Below, in pieces: positions 1 to 50,279 of a stretch of 60,377 nt of DNA. Every line of letters begins with the position of its first letter. The stretch's first letter is position 1. The DNA lies in assembly GCA_024653775.1 (NCBI GenBank), contig JANLHZ010000106.1, positions 1-60,377 on the forward strand. Direction: 5' to 3'. A model generated the notes under the pieces. It searched no databases. It was given only the letters and a program-made list of their open reading frames with translations, and had not been told where the DNA came from. Position numbers and translations under genes: made by a program. Source of the DNA: Planctomycetota bacterium. Its GTDB lineage: Bacteria; Planctomycetota; UBA8742; JACQVU01; JANLHZ01.

Positions 1-259
1 GCCCGCGCTGCTTACAAGAACCGAGGTAGTGGAGAAGGGAATCAGGTACGTTCAGGAGAACGCGCTGATAGCTCTTGGTAACATGGGTAAGTACGCGGAG
101 TCAGCGTTGCCTATTCTAACGCAATACACGGAGTTCTCGGAATCCGCGAATTTCAAGGCCAAGGCGCATTCCGTTCAAAATTCCACACCAAGCGAAACAA
201 TCCGAAATGCCGCGCGGGAAGCGATAGCGAAGATCGAGGCGGACTTAGGTTCAGATTGA
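1..259 (+). CDS. C-terminal part of a HEAT-repeat protein (5' end outside the window)
   Basis: HEAT-like helical motifs 'YVQENALIALGNMG' and 'IRNAAREAIAKI'; reading frame open from the window edge. Confidence 0.6.
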   Translation, partial: PALLTRTEVVEKGIRYVQENALIALGNMGKYAESALPILTQYTEFSESANFKAKAHSVQNSTPSETIRNAAREAIAKIEADLGSD

Positions 260-319
260 TTTTTTGACCGCCGACCTGTGGTTTCGTCTTTTCGGGCTTC
301 GCGTTTGCGATGTCTAATT

Positions 320-2974: not shown

Positions 2975-3032
2975 GAACTTGCGTTCGATTTCGATTGTAG
3001 CCCTATGACGGTTATTGTCAATGTCGGAGAAG

Positions 3033-3077
3033 AGAGTTAAGAGTTAAGAGTTAAGAGTTGAGAGTTGAGAGTTAAGA
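3033..3077 (+). repeat. Heptamer tandem repeat (GAGTTRA)x6
   Basis: gagttaa gagttaa gagttaa gagttga gagttga gagttaa read directly. Confidence 0.9.
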
Positions 3078-3103
3078 ATTGAATTTCTGACCACTCACCA
3101 CTT

Positions 3104-3213
3104 AGAAACTATCTCAAGCAAGCGAACAGGACATTTCGGTGCCGTCAAATGAGACGTTAGACGACTTGTGCGGACATAGACGACCGCGGTCCCGGGGGCT
3201 TGAGATAGTTTCT
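3104..3213 (+). mobile_element. MITE-like family A copy (110 bp, TIR AGAAACTATCTCAAGC)
   Basis: 16-bp perfect terminal inverted repeat 3104-3119 / 3198-3213 with internal hairpins. Confidence 0.8.
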
Positions 3214-3695
3214 TATTCCTAACTCCTCAAGTTGACTGCCTTTTCAGCCTACCGAGCGAAAAAATATAAAAATCCGCGCTTAGTAAATGTCTCACCAAGT
3301 ATTCCTGCAGGAAGAAGAGACAGAGATCGGAGGTTCCTTTTCGCGCACAGACAGGTAAGTCCGGATGGCGTTTAACGAATGTCGGCGCTGCCTGTGCGAG
3401 TCACGAACTGGAACCACCCGGAGTCGTCAACATGCCGTCGAGTTTCTCCGGCATGGCGAAGGCTCCGGGTCCACCGAGGGTACCCTCGATCCTTTCTCGC
3501 CACGGGCGGGAAAGGATAAGAAATAGCGGGTGAAAGAATGGAAATGAAAGCCCGCTGAAAAAATAGCACTGTTCACAACCAAGCGAAGCCTGAACCAAAA
3601 ACTTCGGCGCGGAGACGCAGAGGCTCGCAGAGAATTCCCCCCTCTCCCCACGGGAAAGGGAAACCCCGTGAACATTTACCCTAAGGACGCGCGTC

Positions 3696-5270
3696 CTAAC
3701 TCCTGATTCCTTCGAGTATTTTGATCGCCGCGCCGACGCCATCGACGGCGCTGCTGACGATTCCGCCCGCGTAGCCCGCGCCTTCGCCGAGCGGGTACAG
3801 ATTCTCTGCCGATGGACTCTGGAACGTTTCGCGGTCCCGCAGAATCCTCACGGGAGAACTCGTCCTCGTCTCGACCCCGAAGATGCAGGCCTCCTCGCCG
3901 GTCTGGAATCCAGGTAGCTGACGTTCGAAAGCTTCTAGCGCACCCTTGATGCCGCCAAGCACGAAGCTCGGGAGTTTCCCGCTCAGTTCCGCTGGAAGCG
4001 CGCAGGGAACGCTCGAATTTCCCGGAAGCGACTTCGATGCCCTACCTTCGAGGAAGTCGCGAAGACGCTGACCCGGAATTACCCTCGCGCTGCCCTCCGC
4101 GTTCACAAGCCCGCGGAATTCCGATTCGAGATTCCGCTGAAGTTCAAGTCCTCCGAGAACTCCAGAGAATCCAAGCGCACTGACGTCCGCCTCGTCCACA
4201 CCGACCACGATGCCCGAGTTCGAATAGGGCGCACGGTAGCCGTAATTGCTCATTCCGTTCGTGACGACTCCGGAGGACTCCGTGGACGAATTGATTATGT
4301 ATCCGCCCGGACACATGCAAAACGAATAACAGCCCCTGCCGGAACTGTCCGTGTGCGCGAGTCTGTAATTCGCCGCCTCGATTCCCTCGTACTTCGCCGA
4401 ATAATCCGCGCCGTACTGAAGGCGGTTGATCGTCTCCTTCAAATGCTCGACCCGAAGTCCAACCGCAAACGGCTTGAATTCGAGCGCGACGTCGCGCTCA
4501 CTGAGCATCCGGAAAACATCCATCGCGGAGTGCCCCGCCGCGAGAAGCAGATAGTCCACGTCGTCGATGCGTCCCTTGGAGGTCAGCACGCTCCGGACCT
4601 TCCCGTTGTCGATTCCGACGTCGAGCAGCTTCTCGTCGAAGCGAATAGTCACGCCGCCTCCGCGGAGCCTTTCGAAGAGAACCCGCAGACAGTTTCGAAG
4701 CTTGTTCGAGCCGATGTGCGCGGTCGCGTCGAACGTCACCGTCTCGGGCGCTCCCGCCTTTCGAAGCTCGTTCAGCACGTATCCCGCAAGCGGCGACTTG
4801 ATCCTCGTGTAGAGTTTGCCATCGCTGAACGCGCCCGCGCCGCCGGCTCCGAATCCGATGTTCCCGAGCGGATCGAGCACGCCCCGCCTGTAGAACGCTG
4901 CGATCTTTTTGATACGGTCGACCAAGTCCGGCCCCTGCTCGACGATGGTCGAAGGAACGCCCGCGCTCGCGAGATGCTGCGCCGCGAACATTCCCGCGGG
5001 TCCGGAGCCGACGATCACGATCTTCGGCAGCCGTCTTCCTTCGTGCTTCCCGCGAACGTTCTCGATCTCTTTATAGAGGTCGTCCAGCGGATCGTGCATA
5101 TCCGTCGTGACGCGGTACACGACCCGGATCGAATCCTTCTTGCGCGCGTCGATGCTCCTTCTGAGAATCCGGAAGTTCGCATCGTCCCGCCATCCGAGCT
5201 TCCGCTTCACCGCGCGTTCGAGATCGAAGGCTGTGTGTTTGAATCTCATTCTGACGTCGAAAGTCTTCAT
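3696..5270 (-). CDS. FAD-dependent oxidoreductase (COG2509-like)
   Basis: IVGSGPAG dinucleotide-binding motif, GAGAFSDGKL, SFCMCPGG, GEGAGYAGGIVSSAVDG. Confidence 0.9.
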   Translation of the reverse strand: MKTFDVRMRFKHTAFDLERAVKRKLGWRDDANFRILRRSIDARKKDSIRVVYRVTTDMHDPLDDLYKEIENVRGKHEGRRLPKIVIVGSGPAGMFAAQHLASAGVPSTIVEQGPDLVDRIKKIAAFYRRGVLDPLGNIGFGAGGAGAFSDGKLYTRIKSPLAGYVLNELRKAGAPETVTFDATAHIGSNKLRNCLRVLFERLRGGGVTIRFDEKLLDVGIDNGKVRSVLTSKGRIDDVDYLLLAAGHSAMDVFRMLSERDVALEFKPFAVGLRVEHLKETINRLQYGADYSAKYEGIEAANYRLAHTDSSGRGCYSFCMCPGGYIINSSTESSGVVTNGMSNYGYRAPYSNSGIVVGVDEADVSALGFSGVLGGLELQRNLESEFRGLVNAEGSARVIPGQRLRDFLEGRASKSLPGNSSVPCALPAELSGKLPSFVLGGIKGALEAFERQLPGFQTGEEACIFGVETRTSSPVRILRDRETFQSPSAENLYPLGEGAGYAGGIVSSAVDGVGAAIKILEGIRS

Positions 5271-9629: not shown

Positions 9630-9736
9630 TTTTTGAATCGTGTGTATCGATAATCCGCATCCGCCGGTGACTTCACGCGGGGGCCCGCCAGAAAATATTC
9701 TGCGGAATCTTCGCGGCGCGTGGTTAGAATACTTGC

Positions 9737-9875
9737 AACTGTTCACGGAGTAGTTCGCGTTCGTAGTGGCGCCGTAAGGCGTTTCTTTGAACCACCGCTA
9801 TCTGGAAAATATGCTCTCACGAGCACACTACGAACAGATTCCCGCTATAGACTGCGAACTACCCCGTGAACAGTT
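9737..9875 (-). mobile_element. MITE-like family B copy 2, inverted relative to copy 1
   Basis: Same TIR (one mismatch); interior is close to the reverse complement of 8662-8799. Confidence 0.85.
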
Positions 9876-32066: not shown

Positions 32067-35000
32067 TCAGCGCACTCTTGCGATGACGACTGACCCTGAC
32101 GGCTTGAGTTCGATCGACGGCAGCATCGATCCGCCGAGGGCCTGCGCGCGGGTCTGGACGTTCCGTTCGAGGTACAGACTCAGTTCCGAAAGCGTGACCA
32201 CGTTGTTCCCGTCGCCGGAAAGCCGGTCGGCGTTTCCGCTTAGACCGTCGAGGAGGATTTTCGTGAACACGCCGTTTTCGGCCTCCGGATCCTCGTGGGA
32301 GAACTGCCCTGGCTGGCAGGCGCCGAAGGTGGCTGTGACCTCGGTCGCCTCGTTGACGACGGTTCCGAGTACGCCGCGCATGCTCTGGTTGACCTGGTTT
32401 TCGCCTCGGAACATTCCGATGCCGCCCGCGTGGCAGGCGTCAATGAACTGAATCCTTCGCTTCGCGCGGAGTCTGTTCCAGAGTCCGGTAAGCGTTTCAG
32501 CCATCACGCCTGTCGCGGGGAGTCCCGCCGCTTGCGAGTCCCACGCGACGAGCGAGGTCGATCTTTCGTCCGCGATGCCGTGACCTGCGAAGAAGAAAAC
32601 CACCGTATCCTCTTCCGCCGACGCGCCGCGGACGAGGTGCTGCTCGAACGCCGCGCTGATAGCGCCCTGGGTCGCGCTCGAACCCGTCAGCGTCCGAACC
32701 GCGCCGTTCAGACTCCCGTCCTCGCGCAGAAGCGGTGAGTTCGGGTTCGTCTCGAACCAGGATGCGACGTCGATTGCGTCGTTTTCGGCGTACTGAAGAT
32801 CGCGAATAGCGTCGTCGCGATAATCGTTTATCCCAACGCAGAGAACCTGCCAGCGCCCGCGTGGAGTTTCGCGGGAGATGGTGCGGGTTTCCGAATATTC
32901 CTTGCCGTTCCCTGTGCGAAGGAAAACCCGAATCTGGTGCGTCCCGACGGAAAGCGAAAGCGTGCGTTCGAAGAACTCCTCGCGGAAGTTTCTTGCCGGT
33001 TCGGACGCGGGCGTCGTCAAGCCGGAGTCCGCGGTCGCGATCGCGCCCGGATCGCGGCTGATCGCGCTTACGACAACGCCGTCCACGAGAATATCGAACT
33101 GCGAAAACCCGCCGTACGCCTTTGCGTAGCCGCTGACCTTGACGTGCTCCTCGGTGGTGACGAAACTATCCGCCGGCGAATTGAGGCGTAGCACGTCCTC
33201 TCCGCGGAACACCTGCGTGATCGTCGGCGCGACTGCCTGCGATCCCCAGGAAGAAACCGTCTGGGAGCCGTGCTCGGTGAGGTCGTTCGAGGCGATCCAG
33301 GCCCGCTTGCCTTCCGCGGACTCGAACTCGTACCAGCTTCCGAGCTGCCTCGTGATCCGAAGCGCGCTTCCCGCGCCCGTCGCGATCGACATCAACTCCG
33401 TTTCCGCGCTCGCGCCGCTGTAGACGTTCGCGCTTTCACCCGCAAGATACATCGTCCGCGGCGGCGTGAACACGATCTCTCGATCGCTCGTGCGCGCGCC
33501 CACCTTGATCTCGATGTCGTCCTCGAAATTCAACCCGAATACCCGATCCTGCGCAAAAACGTGAATCCAGACGCTCGAGAATCCAAGCCCGGGCTTCGAG
33601 CCGAGTCTCACGCGGAACTCGTGGGTCTCGTTCGGTCCGAGCGCAGGGATCGTCTCTTCCGTGTCTCCAATCAGAAACGCGTTTCCATCGTAATTGCTCA
33701 TCGCGCCGAATGAAGTCTGAATCAGAAGGTCCCGCGCGGTCCCGGCCCCGGCGTTCGTGATGCCTAACACCACGTCGCCCGACTCGCCGGGAGAAAGAAT
33801 CCCGTCCTTGTTTCCGACGCTTTCGATAAACCGCGCGCTGTATCTTATCTCCGGCTTAGGCACCGGCTGAACCGCCTGCGAGACGTTAATATCCGAAGGA
33901 TCGAATCCGCGACCCTCTTTGAAACGCAGCCTGAACTGAATCCGGTCCGCGTCGAACGACATCGGAAGCGTGAACGAAACCCTCCGCGTGACGCTTCCAT
34001 GGCGCGGTACGAACCCAACGAACACGCGGTACGGGAGTGTCACATCGTCAGACGTGCCTTCGAAATCGACTTCCGGAAACGCCGCGACCTGATAGAGGTC
34101 TTCATCGCCGCTATTCTCGACCGTCAGCGCTAGTTTGTAGTCGCTGCCGGGCGACAACGCGCCCGAGAAAGCCCCCTCGAATCCGACCCGCGCGACTCCG
34201 TAAGGCTGGCCTGCGATCTCAGCCGGCGGGCTGATCCAGTTCACGGCGTCGCCTCCGACGGTAAAGTTTTCCCAGATCGGCGGAATCGTCCAAGGCGGCT
34301 CGAAACTCCAGAGATCCTTCTTGACGATGCCGTCGTGCCCGCCGAAAACGAGCATCTTATTCCCGGTCCACACTGCGCTGTGGCCTGTCCGCTTCGGCGG
34401 CTTCGTGTACCCCACGTCGATCTGCCTCCAGGACCTCGATTCGTTATTGTACACCCAGGTGTCGTCCAGATAGTTCGTTCCGTCGTAGCCCCCGAACATC
34501 ACGGTTTCGTTTCCGGTGAAAATCGCTGTGGTCCCGCCCCGCGCAGGCGGCGTCGATCTCAGCCCCGGCCAGAGCCACATCCTGGATTCGCGATCGAAGA
34601 CCGCACCGGTAGTCAGATACCCTCCTCCGTAGCCGCCCCAGACGAACATCTGGCTTCCCATCCATACCGCTATGTGTCTGTACCGCCCCGCCGGGACGTT
34701 CAGGACGTTCAGCGACGACCAGGAATCGCTGGAAGGATTGTATATTCCGCCGTCGTACTTGACGAAGCCGTCGTCGCCACCGCCGCCGAAAACGATCATC
34801 TCCGTCCCAGTCCACACCGCGGAATGATTGTCTCTTGGGGAAGGCGCGCCGACCGCGGTAATCCTTCGCCAGACGTCCGTGGAAGGATTGTAGGCCCAGC
34901 CGTCCGGGACCATGGTCGAATCCTCGATCCCGGTCTTTCCCGAAAAGACGATCATCTCGGTTCCGGTCCAGACAGCGCTGTGGTCCTTTCGCGCGATCGG

Positions 35001-35354
35001 CTCCGAATAAGGAGCGCTCATCGACGTCCAGGTGTCGGTCTCCGGATCGTAGACGCCGCCGTCCGCGACGGTCTGTTCGCCGTTCCAGCCGCCCCAGACG
35101 ATCATTTTGCTTCCGGTCCAGACAGCAGCGTGGACGCTCCTCTCGGTCGGAGCGCCGACGGTACTCAGTTCCTTCCATACGTTCCGGATAAGCGAAACCG
35201 CGGAGTCGTTTTCGAACGTGCTCGCCTCGACGTAATACGCGTCGTAGTCGAAGTCGTCGTCGGACGAGAACAGCGAACAGCACGGAATCGCCGCGGAAAC
35301 GAAAAGCAGCGAAAGAAATATCGAAGGACGAATGCGGGAATCAGCGGAGAACAT
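32067..35354 (-). CDS. Exported Kelch-repeat / Ig-like / SH3-like / caspase-like (peptidase C14) protein
   Basis: Signal or lipoprotein N-terminus; six HSAVWTG..MIVFGG Kelch-type repeats; VGINDY, LQYAENDA, FFFAGHG and FIDACHAG catalytic dyad. Confidence 0.85.
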   Translation of the reverse strand: MFSADSRIRPSIFLSLLFVSAAIPCCSLFSSDDDFDYDAYYVEASTFENDSAVSLIRNVWKELSTVGAPTERSVHAAVWTGSKMIVWGGWNGEQTVADGGVYDPETDTWTSMSAPYSEPIARKDHSAVWTGTEMIVFSGKTGIEDSTMVPDGWAYNPSTDVWRRITAVGAPSPRDNHSAVWTGTEMIVFGGGGDDGFVKYDGGIYNPSSDSWSSLNVLNVPAGRYRHIAVWMGSQMFVWGGYGGGYLTTGAVFDRESRMWLWPGLRSTPPARGGTTAIFTGNETVMFGGYDGTNYLDDTWVYNNESRSWRQIDVGYTKPPKRTGHSAVWTGNKMLVFGGHDGIVKKDLWSFEPPWTIPPIWENFTVGGDAVNWISPPAEIAGQPYGVARVGFEGAFSGALSPGSDYKLALTVENSGDEDLYQVAAFPEVDFEGTSDDVTLPYRVFVGFVPRHGSVTRRVSFTLPMSFDADRIQFRLRFKEGRGFDPSDINVSQAVQPVPKPEIRYSARFIESVGNKDGILSPGESGDVVLGITNAGAGTARDLLIQTSFGAMSNYDGNAFLIGDTEETIPALGPNETHEFRVRLGSKPGLGFSSVWIHVFAQDRVFGLNFEDDIEIKVGARTSDREIVFTPPRTMYLAGESANVYSGASAETELMSIATGAGSALRITRQLGSWYEFESAEGKRAWIASNDLTEHGSQTVSSWGSQAVAPTITQVFRGEDVLRLNSPADSFVTTEEHVKVSGYAKAYGGFSQFDILVDGVVVSAISRDPGAIATADSGLTTPASEPARNFREEFFERTLSLSVGTHQIRVFLRTGNGKEYSETRTISRETPRGRWQVLCVGINDYRDDAIRDLQYAENDAIDVASWFETNPNSPLLREDGSLNGAVRTLTGSSATQGAISAAFEQHLVRGASAEEDTVVFFFAGHGIADERSTSLVAWDSQAAGLPATGVMAETLTGLWNRLRAKRRIQFIDACHAGGIGMFRGENQVNQSMRGVLGTVVNEATEVTATFGACQPGQFSHEDPEAENGVFTKILLDGLSGNADRLSGDGNNVVTLSELSLYLERNVQTRAQALGGSMLPSIELKPSGSVVIARVR

Positions 35355-35548
35355 TGCCGGCTCCTACAACTTTTTATAAATCGAATCTAGAATAATCTTA
35401 TTACGCAAAACTATGAAAATCAGGGGAAGCGATCTTTTTTGTGCCGCCTGACTGTTTCCGGTATTATACCAGAGTACAGATGCCAACCTCGAAGTTCACG
35501 GCGATCTTGGTTCGGCGGCCGCTCAATTTACAAGTTTGCGCTCCACGA

Positions 35549-36706
35549 ATGACGACAATTCAAAAATCAAAAATGGAAAATCGAAAATTGGACAACTTCG
35601 TTCCGCCGAAGGGCGCGAAGATCGCCGTCGCGATGTCAGGCGGCGTGGATTCCTCCGTGACCTGCGCGCTTCTGAAAGAAGCCGGGTATGAAGTAGCGGG
35701 TTTTTTCATGAATATGGGGATTCCGTCAAGCGTGACGAAGAATTCGAAAAGCTGCTGCTCCGCGGTCGACGCGCGGGACGCGGCCCGCGTCGCGTCGAAG
35801 TTCGAGGTCCCCTACTACTCCCTCGATTTCAGCGAAGGCGGGAAAACGCTCATCGATTATTTCGTCGCCGAGTACGATCGCGGCAGGACGCCGAATCCGT
35901 GCGTGATGTGCAACCAGAAGGTCAAGTTCTCGAAGCTCCTGAACTTCATCGACGAACTCGGATTCGACTATCTCGCCACCGGACACTACGCCCGGGTCGT
36001 AAATCATCGCGGCGCGAAGCACATAGCCCGCGGCGTATGCGCTGAAAAGGACCAGAGCTACTTCCTCTTCGGCGTAGATTCGGGACTGATCGAGCGCATC
36101 GTATTCCCGCTCGGGACGATGACGAAGGACGAAGTCCGCGATGAGGCGCGAAGATTCGGACTAGGCGTCGCGGAAAAAGCCGAGAGCCAGGAAATCTGCT
36201 TCGTCCCGGACGACGACTATCGCACGCTTTTGAAGGACCGGATTCCCGAGCGCATCCGCCCCGGCAAAGTCATTGGTCCGGAAGGCGATGAAGTCGGAGA
36301 ACACGACGGATTCCAGATGTACACCGTCGGCCAGCGCAAGGGTCTTCGGATCGCGGTCGGAAAGCCGGTGTACGTGAAAAACATCGACCGCGAGTCTAAC
36401 ACGGTAAGCCTCGGAGAGCGCGACGATCTGATGGCGAAGGAGTTCATCGCGAGGGACGCAAAGTTCACGAACATGCCTCTCGCGGAGCACGAATGGGCGA
36501 AGGGCGGGCGCGTGTCGATGTTCGACGCGGCGGTGCAAATTCGTTACCACCACGAAGCGCAGCCCGCAAGCGTCGAGATTTTCAGCGGCGGGACGTTCCT
36601 CGTCCGGTTCCACGAACCCGTGTGGGCGATAACCCCCGGCCAGGCCGCGGTCGTATACGACGAAGACGTCGTCCTCGGCGGCGGGTTCATCGACAGGGTG
36701 TACTGA
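35549..36706 (+). CDS. mnmA: tRNA 2-thiouridylase MnmA
   Basis: [58 protein letters not shown]. Confidence 0.97.
   Translation: MTTIQKSKMENRKLDNFVPPKGAKIAVAMSGGVDSSVTCALLKEAGYEVAGFFMNMGIPSSVTKNSKSCCSAVDARDAARVASKFEVPYYSLDFSEGGKTLIDYFVAEYDRGRTPNPCVMCNQKVKFSKLLNFIDELGFDYLATGHYARVVNHRGAKHIARGVCAEKDQSYFLFGVDSGLIERIVFPLGTMTKDEVRDEARRFGLGVAEKAESQEICFVPDDDYRTLLKDRIPERIRPGKVIGPEGDEVGEHDGFQMYTVGQRKGLRIAVGKPVYVKNIDRESNTVSLGERDDLMAKEFIARDAKFTNMPLAEHEWAKGGRVSMFDAAVQIRYHHEAQPASVEIFSGGTFLVRFHEPVWAITPGQAAVVYDEDVVLGGGFIDRVY
36591..36706 (+). repeat. Left attachment-like direct repeat (functional mnmA 3' end)
   Basis: 113/116 nt identical to 40606-40721. Confidence 0.95.
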
Positions 36707-36765
36707 GCGTGAAAGCGCGGACACCTCCCGCCTCACGATTCATCTTAAAATCTTGGTGCTTCCAA

Positions 36766-37056
36766 TCATGCCACCACCACCTTCGCAGCGGTACTGACGG
36801 TTACGACAACTGAAAATCCGGGCGCGATTGGAAAGCGAATGTGAAGTCGTCTCAGCTCCTGCACGAATCCGAGGTTAAGCGTGAACGCGTCGAATATTGG
36901 AATCTGCGCATTGTTGTCCGGCTGTAACCAACCCGGTGAGGGTAGTGGCCCTGGACCATCGACCTCAATCTGAATGGTATTCGCCTGCACATAGATCACC
37001 GAATCCACCGGGCCCTGGCTGAGATCGAAAAAGAAAAATCTCACGTTTTCGGACAT
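36766..37056 (-). CDS. Small beta-rich hypothetical protein (possible minor capsid protein)
   Basis: GGAG RBS; alternating hydrophobic strands; last gene of the island. Confidence 0.6.
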   Translation of the reverse strand: MSENVRFFFFDLSQGPVDSVIYVQANTIQIEVDGPGPLPSPGWLQPDNNAQIPIFDAFTLNLGFVQELRRLHIRFPIAPGFSVVVTVSTAAKVVVA

Positions 37057-37119
37057 TGAATCTCCGCGCTATATAAGTCGAAATACATCAAAAATATCAA
37101 AATTTCGCACTCACTTGCA

Positions 37120-37932
37120 TTACTGATTACCCTTAGATCGCCAGAAAGAATCGTATCCTGAGTTATTCCAACTCCGCAAATAAGCTCTTCTATCTGTTAT
37201 CCAGTCGCCAACAGTCTCCGGGAATTCCTTGCGGAACACGGCGAACAGTCTGCCAATTGCTTCATTCCAGTGATCCATATTATTAGTAGCGACTGCTTCC
37301 AACCGCGCCTCCTCGATTTTCTCAGATGGAAACAATGCGAATAATTCTTTAACGGCTGTTGCAAAATCGAAAATCCTCGCCTTTCGCAATCTACCATGAC
37401 AAAAACGGCAATTACAAATGTCGTCGGATTGGCAATCGTCCAATATATACGGTCGATGCCAAGTTTCGCGATAGTCATATCGGCTCAAATAATCTATAAA
37501 TTGTGAATGAACGCTCGGATTTCCGCCAATTGCTATAACCTGAACCATCCTAAAAAACAAAGGCATATATGAGTCGCCCATCAACGAATACCAGTCAATT
37601 GCAGAAAACCTATCCGACAAAATGATGTCGGCGAGGGGGCCGTGTACAATTGTGTCGATTTCATCATCGCGGTACTCACTATGCCTTTCGGAGGTCAACC
37701 TGTAAATGTTGGCGCTAACGTATTCAACATCAGTCCACTTTTGAAACGACGAGGATTTGTTCGATTTCGATATGTTATCGAAATGTATAAAAGTGTGGTT
37801 ATTGCGTTTTGCCCTATAAATATCTGATTTTTTAGATTTAATAGTCGAAGCGAACCATACAGCCGTCAAAGCCATGAATAAAAAGCATAAGGTAAATATT
37901 TTAAATTTATATTTTGGGCGTTTTTTTTTCAT
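37120..37932 (-). CDS. Membrane-anchored hypothetical protein (candidate immunity or partner protein)
   Basis: ATGA overlap with the upstream stop at 37929-37932; basic N-terminus plus TM helix (IFTLCFLFMALTAVWFA); CxxxxxCxCxxC cluster; AT-rich. Confidence 0.65.
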   Translation of the reverse strand: MKKKRPKYKFKIFTLCFLFMALTAVWFASTIKSKKSDIYRAKRNNHTFIHFDNISKSNKSSSFQKWTDVEYVSANIYRLTSERHSEYRDDEIDTIVHGPLADIILSDRFSAIDWYSLMGDSYMPLFFRMVQVIAIGGNPSVHSQFIDYLSRYDYRETWHRPYILDDCQSDDICNCRFCHGRLRKARIFDFATAVKELFALFPSEKIEEARLEAVATNNMDHWNEAIGRLFAVFRKEFPETVGDWITDRRAYLRSWNNSGYDSFWRSKGNQ

Positions 37933-39008
37933 GACTTCGGCAAATTTGACCAAATAGTAGACGGCTCCCACTTGGGTTGTTTTCTTCCAGCCGGTGTTGT
38001 AAATGCCACGCTGCCCTCACCTTGCTCCAACGCTTTCCTAACTTTATTCGTATAACGAGGGTCTCCCCCTCCGTTATACGCTGCGGCTGTCTCCATCAAC
38101 ATCTCTTGCGTCAGGGTTCCCCCGCAACGCCATCCGCCGCCGCGACCTGTGAATAAATGGAGAAACCATCTCGCACCCCAAAAAATTGATTCTTGCCCGT
38201 CTATGTTCCAATTCGTTAACGCGAGATCGTTTGGCGCCGGGGCAGACCCTGCAGTTTCGCCCGGTACAGGAACGATCAAGTCAAAATCATGTTCAAAAGG
38301 TCGCGATGCGCCAGAACCTGTACGCCATCTTTCTTCCGTTTCACCTCTCATTGCACCCATGGACGGATCCTGAGGATCTGCAACTTGCATCACGTCTTCA
38401 GAATCGACCCAATTCCTGGAGCCTCGCGGCACTATAGCTCCTGCCCCATAACCAATTGAGCTTTCAACCATTGCAATGTGTTTGATGAAATCGGCAATAA
38501 CCCGCATTTGTTCGTTGTCAAGACAAAGCCCCATCTCCTCATTCCAATATGCGACCGCGTTGATAAATGCGCTGTCGTACTTGTCGAATCTTCTTTCGTA
38601 TTTATCATCTTTGTCGAGAACGCCCATGCTTGTCAGAGGACCGATGTTAGCCATATTCTGGGAACTTCGAAGCGTAGCGGGGAATAAAATCGTTTCTCCA
38701 TTGGGCATTACTTCAGTTCGTGGCGGAGACACTGACTCATCTTCATAATCGACGAATTTGAAATACTCTTTTGTAAAGACATCCCGATATTGTCCTCCTT
38801 CGGGGGTATTATCGGGCAAATCCTCTTTTGGTACTTTCGGTTTCTTGTTAAAGTTGCAATTGATACAATCAACCTCTGGACTTGGAGACTTTTCTACATC
38901 GACTTGCGCATCGGTAATGCCGAAAAACCGTTTGTAATCCTGGAGTAGGAAATACTCATTTCTCTCCATCACGGACATGTTATATATTCTTTCCATGTCT
39001 TCCGGCAT
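37929..39008 (-). CDS. Lysozyme-like / SLT-type lytic transglycosylase domain protein
   Basis: SLT motifs in order: IKHIAMVESS (catalytic Glu), DVMQV, SIFWGARWF, AAAYNGG...Y..KV. Confidence 0.7.
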   Translation of the reverse strand: MPEDMERIYNMSVMERNEYFLLQDYKRFFGITDAQVDVEKSPSPEVDCINCNFNKKPKVPKEDLPDNTPEGGQYRDVFTKEYFKFVDYEDESVSPPRTEVMPNGETILFPATLRSSQNMANIGPLTSMGVLDKDDKYERRFDKYDSAFINAVAYWNEEMGLCLDNEQMRVIADFIKHIAMVESSIGYGAGAIVPRGSRNWVDSEDVMQVADPQDPSMGAMRGETEERWRTGSGASRPFEHDFDLIVPVPGETAGSAPAPNDLALTNWNIDGQESIFWGARWFLHLFTGRGGGWRCGGTLTQEMLMETAAAYNGGGDPRYTNKVRKALEQGEGSVAFTTPAGRKQPKWEPSTIWSNLPKS

Positions 39009-39010
39009 TT

Positions 39011-39982
39011 CTACCTCTGGATACTAGTCGTAAGAACTGTCAGCAGCGAATTCACCGGAGGCGTAGCGACGATATTAAGAATAGTATTCAAAACCAGGCT
39101 GTTTTCCACGCGAATCGCGCCCCTGACTCCGTTCCATGTGAAATCGTACATGAAAAATCCAGCCGGTATTCCTTCGGCCGTCGGCATTACGAGTCTCGAT
39201 CCCATCCTTGCAAGCATCAGGTCAAGCGCGGTTTCGACATCAGCCCGCACGAGTGAATTATTATTGTACTCTAGAATTTCGAAGGTGTCAGCAATATTTT
39301 GGCGCTCCCCGGTCGCGTCGTCCCTTATGAAGTAGGCGAGCGAAATGATGTCCCGTCTGCCGTTCGCGTTCTGCGACTGATGACGACCGGACTGGGTAAT
39401 GCCGAAAAACGAGGAAAGATTCGAGACGCGCATCAATGGACCGTTCGGACGCATCGACGTTTCCACCGCGAAAACGTCCGCGCTGACGTTCTGCAGCGTC
39501 CAGCCTGCCGGGGGACCGACCAGAATGTCGGCTATCGTTCCAAAGCGAAGGTCCAGTTGAACGCTCTGCGCGCCATAGACTCCGGCGAGTCCGGACGCGA
39601 ACTGTCCGGGCAGATCAAGGTTGATTTCGATATACCAACTGAAGGGGAACGTGGTCGCGCCGCTTATGACGTCGTTTATGTCCGCCTCTGTCCACCTTGA
39701 ACTTTGCATCTGAGTGAACGCGGCGTACCAGAAATAATCCCTCGGCGCCCACTGCTGAAGCACGACGTTATCGACGAGAAGCGAGGCGCTTTGAATCGCG
39801 TTCAGCGAACCGTCGCCCCGAAACGTTGCTGTGTCCGTGGAAAGCGGCTTCGTGATTTCGCCCCGGATCCTGAGCAGAATCCGGACAATGTTCTTCGAAG
39901 GATTTGTGAGCGTCCCCGACGGATTGCCCGTGTTCGCCCTGAATCTGAAATTGGTGGTGACTGCGTCCATCCCGTTTGCCAT
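39011..39982 (-). CDS. Probable double jelly-roll major capsid protein (STIV/PRD1-like)
   Basis: 323 aa, beta-rich; motif order IVRILLRIRGEIT, LNAIQSASLLVD, WYIEINLDL, QSVQLDLRFG, IISLAYFI, GFFMYDF parallels STIV B345 as I recall it; AAGGA RBS. Confidence 0.65.
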   Translation of the reverse strand: MANGMDAVTTNFRFRANTGNPSGTLTNPSKNIVRILLRIRGEITKPLSTDTATFRGDGSLNAIQSASLLVDNVVLQQWAPRDYFWYAAFTQMQSSRWTEADINDVISGATTFPFSWYIEINLDLPGQFASGLAGVYGAQSVQLDLRFGTIADILVGPPAGWTLQNVSADVFAVETSMRPNGPLMRVSNLSSFFGITQSGRHQSQNANGRRDIISLAYFIRDDATGERQNIADTFEILEYNNNSLVRADVETALDLMLARMGSRLVMPTAEGIPAGFFMYDFTWNGVRGAIRVENSLVLNTILNIVATPPVNSLLTVLTTSIQR

Positions 39983-40038
39983 ATCGGTCCTTTGTGGTTG
40001 CTTCTGTTTTGTTCAAGTCGAAAATCTTTGGAAAAACG

Positions 40039-40494
40039 TCAGGAAAGCACAACTGCGACGACATACGCGGTGGCGTCACCCGTGGTAAGTTCATCCACAT
40101 TCTGATCGGAGGCAATTTCGAACATAAGCGTCCCGCCGCCAAAGTCTATGGGAGTTTGCGATCCGTCGAATTGCGGTCCCGGCGAGGTATTTTTCAGTCC
40201 AGTCGAAACGCCTAACAGCGGCTCGCCGTTTACGAACTGCTTTCCAGCGACGCCGACGGCTCCCACGACGAAAGTTGCCGTGGTTCCGGTGAATGCCTCG
40301 TCGAGCTGAATCCACGCCGCGATTACGAAACTGAGCGGAGGCAGAGTCCCGAAGTTGAACGACTGGTTAGGCAAGCTTGCGGTAAGATCAGAAGTTGTGA
40401 CGCGTCTGCTGTATATCTGTCCTATGCGCAGATCCCGCATTACTTCAGGTCCGCCGCTGGTTCCGAATACGGGAATGTTTCCGACAAAAGTCAT
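40039..40494 (-). CDS. Probable single jelly-roll penton / spike-base / cement-type protein
   Basis: FGTLPPLSFVIAAWIQLDEAFTGTTATFVVG...TGDATAYVV pattern, typical of phage single jelly-roll structural proteins; GGAG RBS. Confidence 0.55.
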   Translation of the reverse strand: MTFVGNIPVFGTSGGPEVMRDLRIGQIYSRRVTTSDLTASLPNQSFNFGTLPPLSFVIAAWIQLDEAFTGTTATFVVGAVGVAGKQFVNGEPLLGVSTGLKNTSPGPQFDGSQTPIDFGGGTLMFEIASDQNVDELTTGDATAYVVAVVLS

Positions 40495-40605
40495 ACTGGC
40501 TCCGTGAAATCGCGTTCGTTAATACGGAGTAGTTTGCCTATCTGAAAAAATCAGCGCCAGTATTTTCGGTCTTATCTTCGATTTGTGATAAAGTTCACGC
40601 GATTA

Positions 40606-40721
40606 GGACGTTCCTCGTCCGGTTCCACGAACCCGTGTGGGCGATAACCCCCGGCCAGGCCGCGGTCGTCTACGACGAAGACGTCGTCCTCGGCGGCGGG
40701 TTCATCGACCGCGTGTACTGA
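40606..40721 (+). repeat. Right attachment-like direct repeat (displaced mnmA 3' end)
   Basis: Duplicate of the last 37 mnmA codons plus stop; three mismatches, all synonymous. Confidence 0.95.
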
Positions 40722-40783: not shown

Positions 40784-42013
40784 ATGAAAGCAACCGGACT
40801 ACTCTGGATCGGACCTCTATACGACCGCGGCGGCTACGGAAACGTCGCGCGGAACTTCATTCTCGGACTCTACGCCCTCGGCTATCCGGTGCGAACATTC
40901 AACCACGGTCCCATGCACGCCGAGATCCCCGCTGATCTCTTCGCGCTGATGAAGAAGCTCGAAACCGCCGACATCGGCGACTTCCCGGTCGTATGCATAC
41001 ACGCCCTCCCCGACTGCGTGGAGCTGTTCTCGATCAAAGGCGCGGCGATGGTCGCAAACTGCACCATCTTCGAAACTGATCGCGTTCCCTCCGTCTGGCC
41101 TGAGTTTTTGAATCTATACGACGAAATCTGGGTGCCTTCGCAGTTCAACGTCGAAACCTTCTCTTCGAGCGGCGTCGAAAAACGTCTGCTCGTAAAAGTG
41201 CCGTACGGAATGGACACGCACTTCTTCAGTCCGGAGCACCGCAAAGCCGGGTCGAAAAGATTTCCGGGGTTCACGTTTCTGTACTGCTTCGCGTTCGGAT
41301 GGCGCAAGGGCTTCGACCTGCTGCTACAGGCCTACCGCGAGGAATTCACAGCCGCGGACGACGTGACTCTTGTGCTCAAGGTCTACGCCTCGACCGAGGA
41401 ACAGAAAACGAAAATGCGTGCCCTGATGACGGACGAGTTCACCCGCGGTTTCAAAGGCAATCCCGCGATGCTCCCGCGGCTCGAGATTCTCGATCACGCG
41501 GTGAGTCAGGAGGAGCTGCGCGACCTCTACTCAGCGTGCGACGTGTACATTTCAACCGACCGCGCGAACGGCTGGGGGATGCCCTGCATGGAATGTATGT
41601 CGATGGGGATTCCTTCCGCGACGATCGACTGGAGCGGCAGCACCGAGTTCATGCTCGATGACAACTCGATCCTGATCCCTCCGGAGAGCGAACTCGAGCC
41701 GGTGGACCAAAGGCTCCAGGATTCGGACCCGCGACTCTACGAAGGGCACAAGTGGCGTAAGGTGAAGGTCAAAAGCGTCAGGTCCGCCATGCGACGCGCC
41801 TTCGAGATGGACCCCGCGGAACTCGACGAACTCGGCATGCGCGGCTGCGCGCACATTCAGACGGAATTCTCTCTCACCGCCGCGGCGGAGAAGCTCGTGA
41901 AGCATATCGAATCTCTCGACTTCCCGGACTCGAAACGCTCGGGTTTCAGGCTCAGGACGCGAAACCGCGTCGAACGCAAGCTACGAAAAATCTTCGGCGC
42001 GAAACCGCTGTGA
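40784..42013 (+). CDS. GT4-family glycosyltransferase
   Basis: GGYGNVARN, TIFETD, DEIWVPSQFN, RKGFDLLL, GWGMPCME. Confidence 0.88.
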   Translation: MKATGLLWIGPLYDRGGYGNVARNFILGLYALGYPVRTFNHGPMHAEIPADLFALMKKLETADIGDFPVVCIHALPDCVELFSIKGAAMVANCTIFETDRVPSVWPEFLNLYDEIWVPSQFNVETFSSSGVEKRLLVKVPYGMDTHFFSPEHRKAGSKRFPGFTFLYCFAFGWRKGFDLLLQAYREEFTAADDVTLVLKVYASTEEQKTKMRALMTDEFTRGFKGNPAMLPRLEILDHAVSQEELRDLYSACDVYISTDRANGWGMPCMECMSMGIPSATIDWSGSTEFMLDDNSILIPPESELEPVDQRLQDSDPRLYEGHKWRKVKVKSVRSAMRRAFEMDPAELDELGMRGCAHIQTEFSLTAAAEKLVKHIESLDFPDSKRSGFRLRTRNRVERKLRKIFGAKPL

Positions 42014-42027
42014 AGTCAGCGGTCGGT

Positions 42028-42470
42028 TAATAGTGTTCGGCACGATTGGCGCTGAACACTATTGGTTCGTTCCAGAAAACCCGGCTGCGGGTTTTACTCG
42101 ACGCTCACGCCAAAATTGGAGCGCAAGCATTCATGCCCGCAAAACTATGTGTTTTATACTCTAGTAACTACTAATGTAATTCATAATGAATTGTATTAGT
42201 AGTTACGATATAAATTTACAATTATATCGTTAATCAATACTAATTCCTATTATTTTCATCGAATACAGAATAACAAGAATATCGTCCGAACGCAAACATC
42301 TTTTCATCAACTTTCTATCGTGCTGGTCACTGTGAACTTCCTGCATGTCGGGTATCATTATCTTCGAGACATGATGGCACTTTGATGTAATCACGTCAGA
42401 ATTGGCAGGCAATCCCGAACAAAACGCTGGCGACAAAATTCACCGCAGGAGGCGTGCCGAACACTATTGG
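42028..42470. mobile_element. Non-autonomous IS/MITE remnant with a 16-bp TIR and target-site duplication
   Basis: AATAGTGTTCGGCACG (42029-42044) / CGTGCCGAACACTATT (42453-42468); direct repeat GCGGTCGGT at 42019-42027 and 42471-42479. Confidence 0.75.
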
Positions 42471-42598
42471 GCGGTCGGTAGTCAATAGTCGGATTTGGAG
42501 TGCAACGCGTAAGCGTTGCTTTCGATTTCCGCTCCGCTTACGCGAAGCGATCCAAAGCTGAACTTACGTTCAGCACTCCAAGGGAATTCCTAATTTTC

Positions 42599-46658: not shown

Positions 46659-49600
46659 ATGAAACACAGCTTCATAATTGAAGAAAAGGGAAAGAAAAGG
46701 AAATGGAAGTTTCCCGAAGGCAGCCGAAGCGCAACCATCGGCCGGGATCCGTCCAACGACCTTCAGATCCTGGAAATCAAGGCCAGCCGGAAACACTGCG
46801 AGATTTCCACGGACGATGGCGACTCGCTCGTACTGATGGACCTGAAAAGCTCTAACGGGACGAAGCTGAACAATCAGGAGGTCGACCGCGAGGTTCTGAA
46901 GCCAGGCGACGTGATCAAAATAGGGAAGACGAAGATAACGTTCCAGGGTAGGGCGAAGGCGCCAACTTCGGACAACGGCAAAGAGGCTCCGGAAGAAGCC
47001 GACGAGGACATCCCCGAGGCGGTTCCGGCGATGGACGAGGAGGACGAAGAGATTGCGGCGATGCCGACGTTCGCCTTGTCCGATGACGGAGATCAGGGAG
47101 CAGGGAACAGGGAACAGGGGACAGAGGACAGAATTACGATTGAAAGAACCGGCAACGAGCCACTCGCCACTAACCACTCGCCACTGGAGACGCCGGAGAA
47201 AAAGAAAAAGAAGAAGACGAAAGTCGTTCGAGATGAGGACGAGGAATCCGCGAAGGAAAATGAGTCCGGGGAGCCGGAGAATGACGACAAAACGTCGGCG
47301 GACGATTCGCTCGACTCAGTCGGCAAGATCAAACTCCAGGGTGACAATGGCGACAAGAAGAAGGCGGTCGTCGCAAGCCAGCAGAGCAAGAAATATGAAC
47401 TTGTGGGTCGAATCGGCGCGGGCGGAATGTCGAGCATAGTAAAAGTGGAAGACCGCGACCTTATGCGTGTTCTCGCGATGAAGCTTCTGATAGAAGGCAA
47501 CAAGGCGAGCGTGAACCGTGTTTCGAGATTCCAGGCGGAGGCGCAGGTCACGGCTCAGCTCGACCACCCGAATATAGTCCCGATCCACGATCTCGGGATC
47601 GACAGCAAGGGAAGGCCGTTTTTCACGATGAAGCTAGTCTCCGGACTGAGCCTGCTCGACGTGGTCGAACGAATGCAGGATGGCGACGAAGAACTCGCGA
47701 AACGGTTCTCCCAGCGCAGGTTCCTCGGAGTGCTGCTCCAGGTGTGCAACGCGATCAGTTTCTCCCACGCGCGGGGAGTCATCCACCGCGACCTCAAGAA
47801 CTCGAACGTGATGGTCGGCGACTACGGCGAGGTCTACGTGATGGACTGGGGACTCGCGAAAGTTCTTGGCCGGGCGGGAGAGGGCACCGCCACCACCGAG
47901 GATTCGAATTACGTTCTCACGAACCGTCAGACGAAGGACGCGCGTAAATCGAAGGACGGCATCATCGCGGGGACTCCGTCGTATATGTCTCCGGAGCAGG
48001 CTCTCGGTAAGAACGACGAAGTCGACGAACGCACCGACGTCTACTCCCTCGGCGGAATGCTATACGAGTATCTGACGGGCACGCCGCCTTTTCTCGGCGA
48101 CGATCCGAAGAAGGTGATGCTCGACGTGGTGGAGAAAGAGATCGAGCCGCCCGGGGTCCGAAATCCGAAGGCGAAGGTTCCCGCGGAACTGAGCGCGATA
48201 ACGATGAAAGCTCTTTCGAAGGACCGCGAGCTACGGTACGCGTCGGTGAAGGATTTCGCGGAGGACATCTCGAGCTTCCTCGAAGGCAAAAGCGTCAGCG
48301 CGAAGAAGGACAACTTCTTCATGCAGGCGGTCAAGTGGACCCGCAGACACTGGATCATTCCGACGATAGTCGGAGCGGTCGTCGTCACCGCGCTGACGGT
48401 GGTCTTCGTCCTGCTCGGCGCGTTCGAATCGATGTACGATCAGACTCCGGTGGCGAAGGCGCTCTACGAAGAAGGCAAATTTTTCGAGACCCGCGCGGAG
48501 ACGGTGCGCAAGACCGCGCTCGATCTGATCGACCAGACGAAGTTCGAGGAGGCGTTCAAGAAACGCGAGGAGGCGGAAATGCTCTTCGCGCAGGCGATCG
48601 AAAAGTTCGCCGCGACGGCTGCGATAGACTCGCTTTTCAAACGTCAGGCGGAGGAGCGTCTCGATGGACTCCGGGCACAGAAGTCGCAGCTCATCTTCGA
48701 GCAAGCAGAGAAACTCGTCCTTCAGGGAAACGAGTTCAAGAACCTCTACGCGAACATAAGGAACCGCGCCCTGGGCGATCTTCAGAAGCAGGTGTTCCTC
48801 GCCGAGCGCAACGTCCAGGGTTACGAGGATTTTGGCGACGCAGTCAAGCAGGAGGCGATCGAGTTCCGGAGGCAGCTCGCGGACCTCGAAGCCAGGATGG
48901 ACCAGGCGTTCCTGCAAGCGCAGGATCGCTACCTTCGCGCGCTGACCCTCGTTCCCTACGACGAGGAGAACCCGAAGACCGCGGACTTCAGCTCGGCCCT
49001 GGCGAGGCTGTACCTGCTTCGGTTCCGGACCTCGGAGGACAGCGGAAACGATCGCGACGCGCGATACTTCATGGACCTCGTCTCCCACTACGACGTCAAA
49101 GAAGAATTTCAGGCCATCATCGTCGGCGACGCGGAACTCGTCCTGAACGTAGACTCCCGAGGCGAAAACGTCAGCGTCACCATCGGAAAGCTGAACACGA
49201 GCGCGTTCCGCTTCGACTTTTCGGAACATCAGGTCGAGAACCATCCCGATGGTTTCGTCATCGCGGACGCTTCGAAGCTCGAAAGCGGAATGTATTCGCT
49301 CGCGCCGCCTTACGCGGGGAAGAGGGTTTCGCTTCCGATGGGAAGCTACATGCTCTACGTTACGCCGGAGGATGGAAGCACGCTGATGCCTCTGCAGACG
49401 AATTTCATAATCGGACGAGGCAGACCGGCGACACTGGACCTGAAAATGTATTCGCGCTCAGAGACGCCGCCTGGGTGCGCGCTCGTATCTTCGGGGAAGA
49501 TGCTCCGCGAAAACGAGGCGACTAACGTGCTTCAGGAAACGAATTCCATAGACAGCTTCTTCATTGGCATAAACGAGGTGAGCCTCGCGGAGTATCTCGA

Positions 49601-50279
49601 ATACTGCACGTCGCTTCCATACGTGGAGATCGACGAGAATAACCCGGTTGAGCCGCCCGCGGAGAGTCAAAACAACCGTCTGCCTTCGAACATGACTGTG
49701 AACGTTCTCTGGAGCGACGGCAACGTCTACGCGAGGCCTTTCTACGATTACGATCAGGCGACGGGCGCGCTGAAACCCGTGTTTCCGGACGGAAGAGACG
49801 TGGGCATCCCAAACTTCGGAAATCAGGTTCCGGTGCTGACGGTCAGACCTTCGGACGCGGAAGGCTACTGCCACTACCTTACGCGCAAATACGGAAATCA
49901 GTGGGAGTTCCGGCTTCCGACGGAAGAGGAGTGGGAGCGCGCGTACCGCGGCGCGGACGGTCGGCTCTATCCCTGGGGGAACAAGATGGACTTCACCTTC
50001 TGCGCGTCGTCAAGGGCGCGTCAGAGCGAGCCGACGTTCTATTCATTCGACGAGTTCCCGCTCGACGTCAGTCCTTTCGGGATAAAATATATGGCGGGCA
50101 ACGCCGCGGAGTGGACCAGCACCAAGCGGACGTTCCAGGGCTTCACGCAGTACCGTCTGAAGGGCGGCGGGTGGAGTTTCAGCGTGGCGGAGGAGTTCGC
50201 CGCGTGGAACGGACTCTGGGTGAACGATTTCTTCCCCCACGAAGCCGCGGGATTCCGGGTGGTTGCGACTGCGAGGTAA
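46659..50279 (+). CDS. FHA + Ser/Thr kinase + TM + helical region + FGE-sulfatase (SUMF1) domain protein
   Basis: IGRDPSND...SRKH...SSNGT (FHA); IGAGGMS, HRDLKNSN, DWGLAK, GTPSYMSPEQ; RLPTEEEWERA, YPWG, MAGNAAEW, GFRVV. Confidence 0.92.
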   Translation: MKHSFIIEEKGKKRKWKFPEGSRSATIGRDPSNDLQILEIKASRKHCEISTDDGDSLVLMDLKSSNGTKLNNQEVDREVLKPGDVIKIGKTKITFQGRAKAPTSDNGKEAPEEADEDIPEAVPAMDEEDEEIAAMPTFALSDDGDQGAGNREQGTEDRITIERTGNEPLATNHSPLETPEKKKKKKTKVVRDEDEESAKENESGEPENDDKTSADDSLDSVGKIKLQGDNGDKKKAVVASQQSKKYELVGRIGAGGMSSIVKVEDRDLMRVLAMKLLIEGNKASVNRVSRFQAEAQVTAQLDHPNIVPIHDLGIDSKGRPFFTMKLVSGLSLLDVVERMQDGDEELAKRFSQRRFLGVLLQVCNAISFSHARGVIHRDLKNSNVMVGDYGEVYVMDWGLAKVLGRAGEGTATTEDSNYVLTNRQTKDARKSKDGIIAGTPSYMSPEQALGKNDEVDERTDVYSLGGMLYEYLTGTPPFLGDDPKKVMLDVVEKEIEPPGVRNPKAKVPAELSAITMKALSKDRELRYASVKDFAEDISSFLEGKSVSAKKDNFFMQAVKWTRRHWIIPTIVGAVVVTALTVVFVLLGAFESMYDQTPVAKALYEEGKFFETRAETVRKTALDLIDQTKFEEAFKKREEAEMLFAQAIEKFAATAAIDSLFKRQAEERLDGLRAQKSQLIFEQAEKLVLQGNEFKNLYANIRNRALGDLQKQVFLAERNVQGYEDFGDAVKQEAIEFRRQLADLEARMDQAFLQAQDRYLRALTLVPYDEENPKTADFSSALARLYLLRFRTSEDSGNDRDARYFMDLVSHYDVKEEFQAIIVGDAELVLNVDSRGENVSVTIGKLNTSAFRFDFSEHQVENHPDGFVIADASKLESGMYSLAPPYAGKRVSLPMGSYMLYVTPEDGSTLMPLQTNFIIGRGRPATLDLKMYSRSETPPGCALVSSGKMLRENEATNVLQETNSIDSFFIGINEVSLAEYLEYCTSLPYVEIDENNPVEPPAESQNNRLPSNMTVNVLWSDGNVYARPFYDYDQATGALKPVFPDGRDVGIPNFGNQVPVLTVRPSDAEGYCHYLTRKYGNQWEFRLPTEEEWERAYRGADGRLYPWGNKMDFTFCASSRARQSEPTFYSFDEFPLDVSPFGIKYMAGNAAEWTSTKRTFQGFTQYRLKGGGWSFSVAEEFAAWNGLWVNDFFPHEAAGFRVVATAR

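Follow-up and report, generated by a model that had tools for sequence, protein, structure and literature searches.

A whole virus kingdom is marked out by its double jelly-roll (DJR) capsid proteins, and outside viruses we know of the fold only in enzyme families such as DUF2961; what, then, is a capsid-type DJR gene doing in a bacterial chromosome? The question is raised by a 60,377-nucleotide stretch of DNA from a planctomycete (Planctomycetota bacterium, GenBank assembly GCA_024653775.1, contig JANLHZ010000106.1, positions 1 to 60,377 of the forward strand; called the window here), in which an earlier note, made from the sequence alone, had read a 323-amino-acid (aa) open reading frame (ORF) as a divergent DJR major capsid protein (MCP) in a probable host of the Planctomycetes-Verrucomicrobia-Chlamydiae (PVC) group. 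The fold, a predicted trimer and the planctomycete host held up, whereas a simple virus capsid did not: the plain capsid gene of a divergent virus was not borne out, as the gene sits in a 3.9-kb, five-gene island that recurs about eight times in the genome and carries toxin/immunity-like pairs. To the reading that the DJR protein is a capsid-like carrier paired with a polymorphic toxin we assign a probability of roughly 0.5.

The ORF is present as a real gene, its coding strand being the minus strand (Table 1), and the plus strand across positions 39011-39982 is closed by stops throughout. The window is one contig (C244) of a fragmented metagenome-assembled genome (MAG; G000) of 5.4 Mb in 331 contigs (96% complete, 2.8% contamination). 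Further copies of the encoded protein, P0001, were found in the same genome on contigs C9 (83% identity), C157 (51%, truncated by the contig end), C143 (36%), C288 (35%) and C249 (32%), together with four fragments; the full or near-full paralogs are put at six. The ratio of nonsynonymous to synonymous substitution rates (dN/dS) was 0.06 and 0.10 for the closest pairs of DJR copies (C244/C9 and C288/C249, respectively), and it is because of these low values and of the paralogs in its own genome that P0001 was taken as a real gene. Two other genes of the island, p151 and p96, gave dN/dS values of 0.05-0.18 and 0.06-0.19, respectively, and all three are core genes under purifying selection. A full HMMER scan of 1.84 billion representative proteins produced five matches, all identical to contig translations of this genome; a word-index homolog search returned P0001 itself and the C9 copy only, and a profile homolog search the own-genome copies only. 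Pattern scans for the DJR family gave 74, 597 and 59 matches in IMG/VR, JGI metagenomes and GTDB genomes, respectively, none of which was confirmed, tblastn of the family against 50,697 phage records gave one chance match (E 9), and none of 40 genomes of relatives contained a match to the DJR profile.

P0001 is most likely a highly diverged DJR protein of the viral major-capsid type, its likeness to capsid proteins being significant at the level of predicted structure only. The AlphaFold2 monomer, modelled from a six-row alignment (A1), had a mean predicted local distance difference test (pLDDT) score of 51, with residues ~20-180 at 65-80 and residues 186-323 below 50. Searched against the PDB with Foldseek, this model gave 77 matches at E<=0.001, with PRD1 P3 at the top (6.5e-7) and PR772 P3, vaccinia D13, PM2 P2 and the iridovirus and STIV MCPs among the others, at TM-scores of only ~0.3. 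Structure matches in BFVD comprised the STIV coat protein and the MCPs of Wip1, GC1, virophages and nucleocytoplasmic large DNA viruses (NCLDV), and a feature search of the ESM Atlas gave 0.98 to clusters automatically named 'Viral coat protein P2'; DUF2961 and PNGase F chains did not occur among the structural matches listed. Because the top matches are viral capsid proteins and not cellular beta-sandwich enzymes, the capsid-type DJR fold proposed in the earlier note stands. An eight-stranded jelly roll of MCP type was recognised in the predicted structure of the N-terminal half. The second jelly roll, modelled by AlphaFold2 at pLDDT <50, was not independently matched to solved structures as a consequence of the poor model of residues 186-323; its assignment is based on an ESMFold2 trimer, in which pLDDT was 85-86.

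No corresponding signal was obtained from the sequence. Pfam gave no family for P0001 at E<=1, PHROGs a single meaningless match (E 0.099), and a PDB sequence-profile search no capsid protein or MCP; hhalign of the DJR family profile against STIV B345 (E 0.7) and PM2 P2 (E 0.53) likewise gave no signal, these comparisons being of low sensitivity since they used single target sequences and a 6-row profile. Five short strings of B345, given in the earlier note as counterparts of stretches of P0001, are all present in the deposited B345 and are collinear in the two proteins (positions 32, 60, 116, 139 and 275 in P0001, and 31, 59, 116, 130 and 270 in B345), whereas the sequence likeness they were meant to convey is no better than chance, the P0001-B345 alignment not exceeding 300 shuffles (z -0.15 global, -1.29 local). 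The proposed lack of a basic or helical C-terminal tail was borne out, P0001 ending 22 residues before B345 without a basic tail.

Three copies of P0001 were folded together with ESMFold2 in three runs, alongside three controls. The interface score (ipSAE) of the homotrimer was 0.84, 0.83 and 0.84 in the three runs, against 0.00 for the best of the 3 controls, with partner pLDDT of 85-86 and contact agreement between runs of at least 82%; the mark applied was one reached by 20 of 30 solved pairs and by 1 of 23 single chains, in a calibration on two copies and with other alignments. In the model, residues 4-12, 34-38, 91-96, 117-119, 128-131 and 169-175 of the N-terminal half contact residues 243-262 and 279-290 in the C-terminal half of the next copy. 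The predicted trimer is thus a head-to-tail ring of six jelly rolls, as expected for a pseudo-hexameric capsomer, and with clean controls it agrees with the trimer that the earlier note had suggested looking for.

The surroundings of the gene are those of a discrete insertion of the mobile-element type (Table 1). The 3' end of mnmA is present on both borders of the island as a pair of direct repeats (family D1; 116 nt, 97% identical, 4,015 nt apart), and the ancestral order was therefore mnmA followed by the glycosyltransferase gene, with the 3,899-bp element inserted between them. Cellular genes lie on both sides, and GC content is 0.40-0.52 across positions 37000-39000 (p359 and p283) against ~0.58 in the flanks. 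No recombinase or transposase was found among the five island genes of the window, and Pfam, PHROGs, NCBIfam and PADLOC scans of the five proteins gave nothing usable and no ATPase, replication or integration family. The genome has four tyrosine recombinase genes (PF00589), on C58, C308, C45 and C26, none of these being module-bearing contigs. Promoter and terminator scans of the island gave results no better than shuffles.

Table 1. Coordinates of the island, its genes and its flanks in the window, and direct repeats flanking four further island loci of the same genome
Feature	Position	Strand	Size	Remarks
mnmA	35441-36706	+		tRNA_Me_trans domains, E 5.6e-70
Direct repeat copy 1	36591..36706	+	116 nt	last 116 nt of mnmA including the stop codon; copy used by the gene; left island border
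Island proper	36707..40605	-	3,899 bp	five co-oriented genes
p96	36766-37056	-	96 aa	small beta-rich protein; last island gene
p283	37120-37971	-		immunity-like protein; likely true start ATG at 37929, giving 269 aa
p359 (P0003)	37929..39008	-	359 aa	polymorphic toxin candidate; begins 2 nt past the DJR stop codon
DJR gene (P0001)	39011..39982	-	323 aa	ATG-to-stop ORF; virus-capsid-like double jelly-roll protein
p151	40039-40494	-		single jelly-roll protein; first island gene
Direct repeat copy 2	40606..40721	+		relic mnmA 3' end; right island border
GT4 glycosyltransferase gene	40784-42013	+		cellular right flank; infB and nusA beyond
Repeat locus C9/C136			122 nt	96.7% identity
Repeat locus C249/C191			129 nt	90% identity
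Repeat locus C18/C276			47 nt	95.7% identity
Repeat locus C243/C300			60 nt	93% identity

The island is one of a family. Six-frame hidden Markov model scans of the genome yielded 10 matches for p151 and 21 for p96, many of them at contig ends, and about eight diverged island copies are estimated to be present; locus counts are estimates because the MAG is fragmented. The gene order p151 - DJR - variable genes - p96 is repeated on C9, C288 and C249 and across contig breaks. With four further loci rebuilt across such breaks, five loci in all proved to be repeat-flanked (47-129 nt), each repeat being the 3' end of a different host gene. The repeats have diverged by 3-10%, compared with synonymous divergence (dS) of 0.47-1.9 between the closest paralogs, and the copies had therefore probably diversified before they reached their present sites; duplication within the genome was rejected as their origin, the repeats being far younger than the divergence of the paralogs. 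Like islands at the ends of tRNA and housekeeping genes, these elements insert at a gene 3' end and leave a direct repeat that keeps the gene intact; they differ in having repeats of 47-129 nt, a different target gene at each locus and no recombinase inside. Long, variable 3'-end duplications without a recombinase in the island are not well accounted for by any mechanism of transposition or integration known to us. Beside the island border on C18 (~9690-9790) lies a ~100-nt palindromic repeat with very many copies genome-wide. The two ends of C180 (64.7 kb; positions 1-5000 and 59600-64678) are exact inverted copies of each other, each with a DJR C-terminal fragment, a DUF3238 payload, p96, an Rce1-like protease and an SLT gene, and these mirrored ends must be put down to misassembly or else to a large inverted repeat.

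The variable genes look like those of polymorphic toxin systems. At the loci checked, the DJR stop codon is followed at a distance of 1-3 nt by the start of the payload gene. Its product in the window, p359, consists of a clade-specific leader of ~30-65 aa and a C-terminal domain, and has a single outside homolog, P0011 (database search, E 1e-9), in which the Rhs_assc_core family TIGR03696 matches residues 113-189 (E 1.4e-22; 80 bits, the cut-off being 32.5). Residues 66-331 of p359 align with residues 193-433 of P0011 (30% identity, pairwise E 1e-21); this being the part of P0011 that follows the Rhs core, the body of p359 is a domain used elsewhere as an Rhs C-terminal toxin. By eye, p359, P0011 and the C9 payload contain motifs of the ES...MQV...YNGG type, which resemble the Glu-Ser, MQV and YNGG motifs of family-1 lytic transglycosylases. 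Pfam SLT (PF01464) did not match p359, the genome scan finding it in three other places only, and the cell-wall enzyme class is therefore a lead only; sequence searches of solved structures with p359 and the C9 payload returned nothing.

Payload proteins from one DJR clade agree at 15-23 of 30 leader residues and those from different clades at 3-7 of 30, whereas the remainder of the proteins shows 13-19% identity in forced alignments (13-17% in five within-clade pairs). In these five pairs, as in polymorphic toxins, the C-terminal domains have been swapped behind a conserved leader. Other payload matches were weak (PG_binding_3, E 2e-4; Hydrolase_2, E 0.097; Ntox44 in the C249 payload, E 1.4e-3, below cut-off), and one, to DUF3238, was over the cut-off (E 2.4e-9). 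Stacked cassette arrays with p96 copies between them occur on C288 and C300, and p96 closes each toxin/immunity cassette on C288, C300, C9 and C136. An orphan cassette on C9 consists of a 32-aa DJR C-terminal fragment (787-888) followed by a leader-bearing gene of 234 aa, and orphan footprints of this kind are left by cassette displacement in Rhs and contact-dependent inhibition (CDI) loci. Hydrophobic segments are absent from the N termini of all toxin candidates, and C136_224 alone has one further inside, at residues 50-68. No recognised trafficking domain (Rhs, CdiA, PAAR/VgrG, LXG, MuF and others) was detected in the module proteins by Pfam or NCBIfam. Further toxin candidates at C300 45727-47706 (minus strand) and C288 35212-36579 carry, after their leaders, a CxC ... 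SPF-x-K ... RRSP motif that they have in common with the C249 and C288 payloads, and the C300 protein has ~300 C-terminal residues of GGNGG-type glycine-rich repeats.

All genes following the toxin candidates encode proteins with a signal anchor or signal peptide, a lipobox or several transmembrane segments, and none matched an immunity family. In the window this position is taken by p283, whose likely ATG overlaps the p359 stop codon (ATGA) and whose N-terminal signal anchor consists of hydrophobic residues 8-26 counted from that ATG; family scans of p283 gave no match, and a holin role was rejected for this 269-aa signal-anchored protein. Directly behind the likely ATG lies a run of nine A residues (37919-37927, minus strand), which could slip and so switch p283 off. 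Homologous leucine-rich-repeat (LRR) lipoproteins occupy the immunity position at C288 36607-37491 and C300 43577-44434.

Of the other two core proteins, p151 has a strongly conserved N-terminal arm, and the structures that it matches best are jelly rolls from the cement or decoration proteins of tailed phages. The ESM Atlas search for p96 was uninformative (best score 0.79), and none of 400 other Planctomycetota genomes matched the p96 profile. Neither p151 nor p96 has a signal peptide, nor does the DJR protein, and a surface location of the three would therefore need another export route. Roles as the Hcp and PAAR components of a type VI secretion system (T6SS) were rejected for p151 and p96, as p151 is a jelly roll and the T6SS sheath gene TssC (PF05943) was not found in the genome (96% complete). 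Residues 9-34 of p96 and 108-129 of p151 (window positions 36955-37032 and 40108-40173) have in common an FD-x-SQ-x-P-[VI]-D ... [FI]E[VI] motif; when p96 was compared by hhalign with p151 and with the DJR protein, only a 22-column motif was found, at a probability of 2%, and the likeness may be due to chance or go back to a common ancestor.

Taken as a whole, the islands have a conserved core of p151, DJR and p96 and a variable payload, in which a toxin gene, probably coupled translationally to the DJR gene, is followed by an immunity-like gene for a membrane or periplasmic protein. We class this as a polymorphic toxin system with a new capsid-derived partner. In the proposed mechanism, DJR trimers and p151, perhaps with p96, would build a shell or carrier particle that binds the clade-specific N-terminal leader of the toxin; the carrier would take the toxin out of the producer without Sec or T6SS, and the toxin, which in the case of p359 has a candidate cell-wall-cutting domain that also serves as an Rhs tip, would act on neighbours that have no immunity protein. 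P0001 would then be a virus-derived capsomer exapted as a toxin carrier or shell. In its strong form, which we regard as doubtful and put forward tentatively, a domesticated tailless DJR capsid would serve as a weapon, a small genome-free shell that loads toxin via the leader and is released against competitors; the 4-kb islands, inserting at gene 3' ends through a mechanism that leaves duplications of 47-129 nt and requires no recombinase of their own, might then hold a DJR counterpart of tailocins, MuF head toxins and encapsulins.

Each of the known systems nearest to this one corresponds to it in part. P0001 belongs to the same ~270-395 aa class as the MCPs PRD1/PR772 P3, STIV B345 and PM2 P2 (Bamfordvirae), is predicted to form the same head-to-tail homotrimer and likewise has a single-jelly-roll gene adjoining its own. 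It differs from them in having no detectable sequence or profile similarity to them and no C-terminal basic or helical tail, and in lying in a 3.9-kb island with ~8 copies per genome, with packaging ATPase, membrane-protein and replication genes absent nearby. Like Rhs and CDI polymorphic toxins, the islands have toxin domains swapped behind a conserved N-terminal region, each toxin gene being followed at once by an immunity-like gene, and they include stacked and orphan cassettes; one of the toxin domains also occurs in an Rhs protein. What separates them from the Rhs, CdiA, PAAR, LXG and MuF types is that the conserved part of the toxin is a leader of ~30-65 aa, and the partner a separate, unfused DJR gene. 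Encapsulins are HK97-fold shells that load cargo via short targeting peptides, and tailocins are phage tails turned bacteriocins. Here, too, a virus structural protein would have been kept without a virus genome, along with what would be short-peptide-directed cargo or use against competitors; the structural protein is, however, a DJR protein and not an HK97 shell or a contractile tail, the cargo signal would be N-terminal, and the particle is a proposed one. To our knowledge, none of MuF toxins, encapsulins and tailocins uses a DJR protein. MuF toxins are carried in phage heads (PMC5576092), and their partner, as in the islands, is a virion-type protein. The cellular DJR families DUF2961 glycosidases, PNGase F and PHM are described in parts of PMC8812541 as enzymes, DUF2961 proteins forming capsomer-like trimers. 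P0001 resembles these cellular proteins as a DJR fold in a bacterial chromosome without virus genes, and differs from the enzymes in having no DUF2961 (PF11175) match, no carbohydrate-metabolism neighbourhood and no signal peptide. Full-text searches of the literature turned up no paper that connects DJR capsid proteins with polymorphic toxins, bacterial domestication or toxin delivery, although related elements could be listed in the supplements of PMC8812541 and PMC5894146.

Several points weigh against the carrier reading. The family is known from one MAG only, and some of its loci may be strain variants (for example, C157 forks to C180 and C251). The AlphaFold2 monomer is poor and its second jelly roll has no independent match to a known structure, and a sequence or profile link to known MCP families is absent in Pfam, PHROGs, the PDB profile search and hhalign against PM2 P2 and B345. 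The score of the trimer, calibrated on two copies, may reflect the model's memory of solved DJR capsomers and therefore shows likeness and not binding. The matches of p151 are not pentons of DJR viruses, no vertex protein was identified, and the fold of p96 is without assignment. The cell-wall enzyme reading of p359 is a lead drawn from short motifs found by eye, and a wall hydrolase with a PG-binding domain beside a membrane protein also resembles a phage lysis or entry cassette. Shell assembly, leader binding, export and the killing of competitors are steps that we infer from gene content and predicted structure. P0001 is accordingly filed as DJR MCP-like and not as a capsid protein of a known virus group, because neither a profile link nor a virus genome context was found.

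The alternative that survives best, which we still consider unlikely, is that the islands are satellite or decayed DJR virus elements, derived from small viruses with neither tail nor membrane and present as integrated remnants or as satellites that depend on a helper. The DJR protein and p151 would then be virion proteins, the variable gene a virion or lysis wall hydrolase, p96 a minor structural protein and the membrane protein a holin-like or entry protein, and the toxin-like traits would be ordinary lysin modularity. The capsid-type fold and trimer with a jelly-roll neighbour would be expected of such elements, as would the direct repeats of host gene 3' ends at five loci, which look like att sites, and the diversification of the copies before insertion, as of members of a mobile pool. 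PRD1-type phages carry virion-borne lytic enzymes, and weak PG_binding and Hydrolase_2 matches were seen in two payloads. The lack of a packaging ATPase has precedents in the FLiP and Odin groups of DJR viruses, as described in passages of PMC5894146 and PMC8812541. Yet the element in the window is complete between its repeats, with five genes in 3.9 kb and no replication, packaging, integration or regulatory gene, below the 7 to 18 kb that parts of PMC5894146 give for prokaryotic DJR virus genomes, and each copy has retained undamaged core genes on which purifying selection acts, which does not agree with decay. The payloads also include candidates that are not lysins (an Ntox44-like protein, a DUF3238 protein and a 660-aa protein rich in glycine), they are paired with signal-peptide or LRR lipoproteins of 170-360 aa that are not holin-like, stacked arrays and an orphan copy occur as in Rhs and CDI loci, and relatives were not found in IMG/VR, phage records or metagenome contigs.

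A trimeric carrier without a shell appears quite unlikely. On this account P0001 would act as a trimer in solution or at the surface, where it might serve the toxin in receptor binding or as a chaperone, and p151 and p96 would be lectin-like accessories. Cellular DJR proteins form capsomer-like trimers and yet are not capsids, according to passages of PMC8812541; no penton-like protein was identified, P0001 has no membrane-contact or basic tail, and the co-variation of leader and DJR clade needs binding only and not encapsulation. Against it stand the missing match between Pfam DUF2961 and P0001 and the core proteins' lack of signal peptides. That P0001 is an unrelated beta-rich protein, a chance beta-sandwich whose capsid matches stem from a poor model (mean pLDDT 51, Foldseek TM-scores ~0.3, no sequence-level MCP link), is very improbable, as PM2-type coat proteins are indicated independently by the language-model feature search and another predictor folds the trimer at pLDDT 85-86 with a capsomer-like ring in which the first jelly roll of one copy meets the second of the next.

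Elsewhere in the window, a 1095-aa protein (32067-35354, minus strand) has a caspase domain (Peptidase_C14) at its C terminus in addition to Kelch beta-propeller repeats and a bacterial SH3 domain, and a 1206-aa protein (46659-50279, plus strand) has FHA, Ser/Thr kinase and FGE-sulfatase domains. Positions 42000-42499, between the glycosyltransferase gene and infB, are of low GC content (0.42).

In this planctomycete, a capsid-type DJR protein has been kept intact under selection in about eight copies, without a surrounding virus genome, and each copy is tied to toxin cassettes by gene order, by translational coupling and by co-varying leaders. The insertion footprint of the islands, with its long and variable duplications of gene 3' ends and no recombinase, merits separate study. 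Sequence searches are blind to the family (0 outside matches among 1.84 billion representative proteins), which gives a measure of the capsid-derived biology that is possibly being missed. If the capsid-like carrier reading is true, the small size and modular payload of the system would make it a candidate protein-delivery scaffold; and if the link between DJR protein and toxin is physical, polymorphic toxins would here be trafficked in a new way, and a cell would for the first time be seen to have exapted a DJR capsomer.

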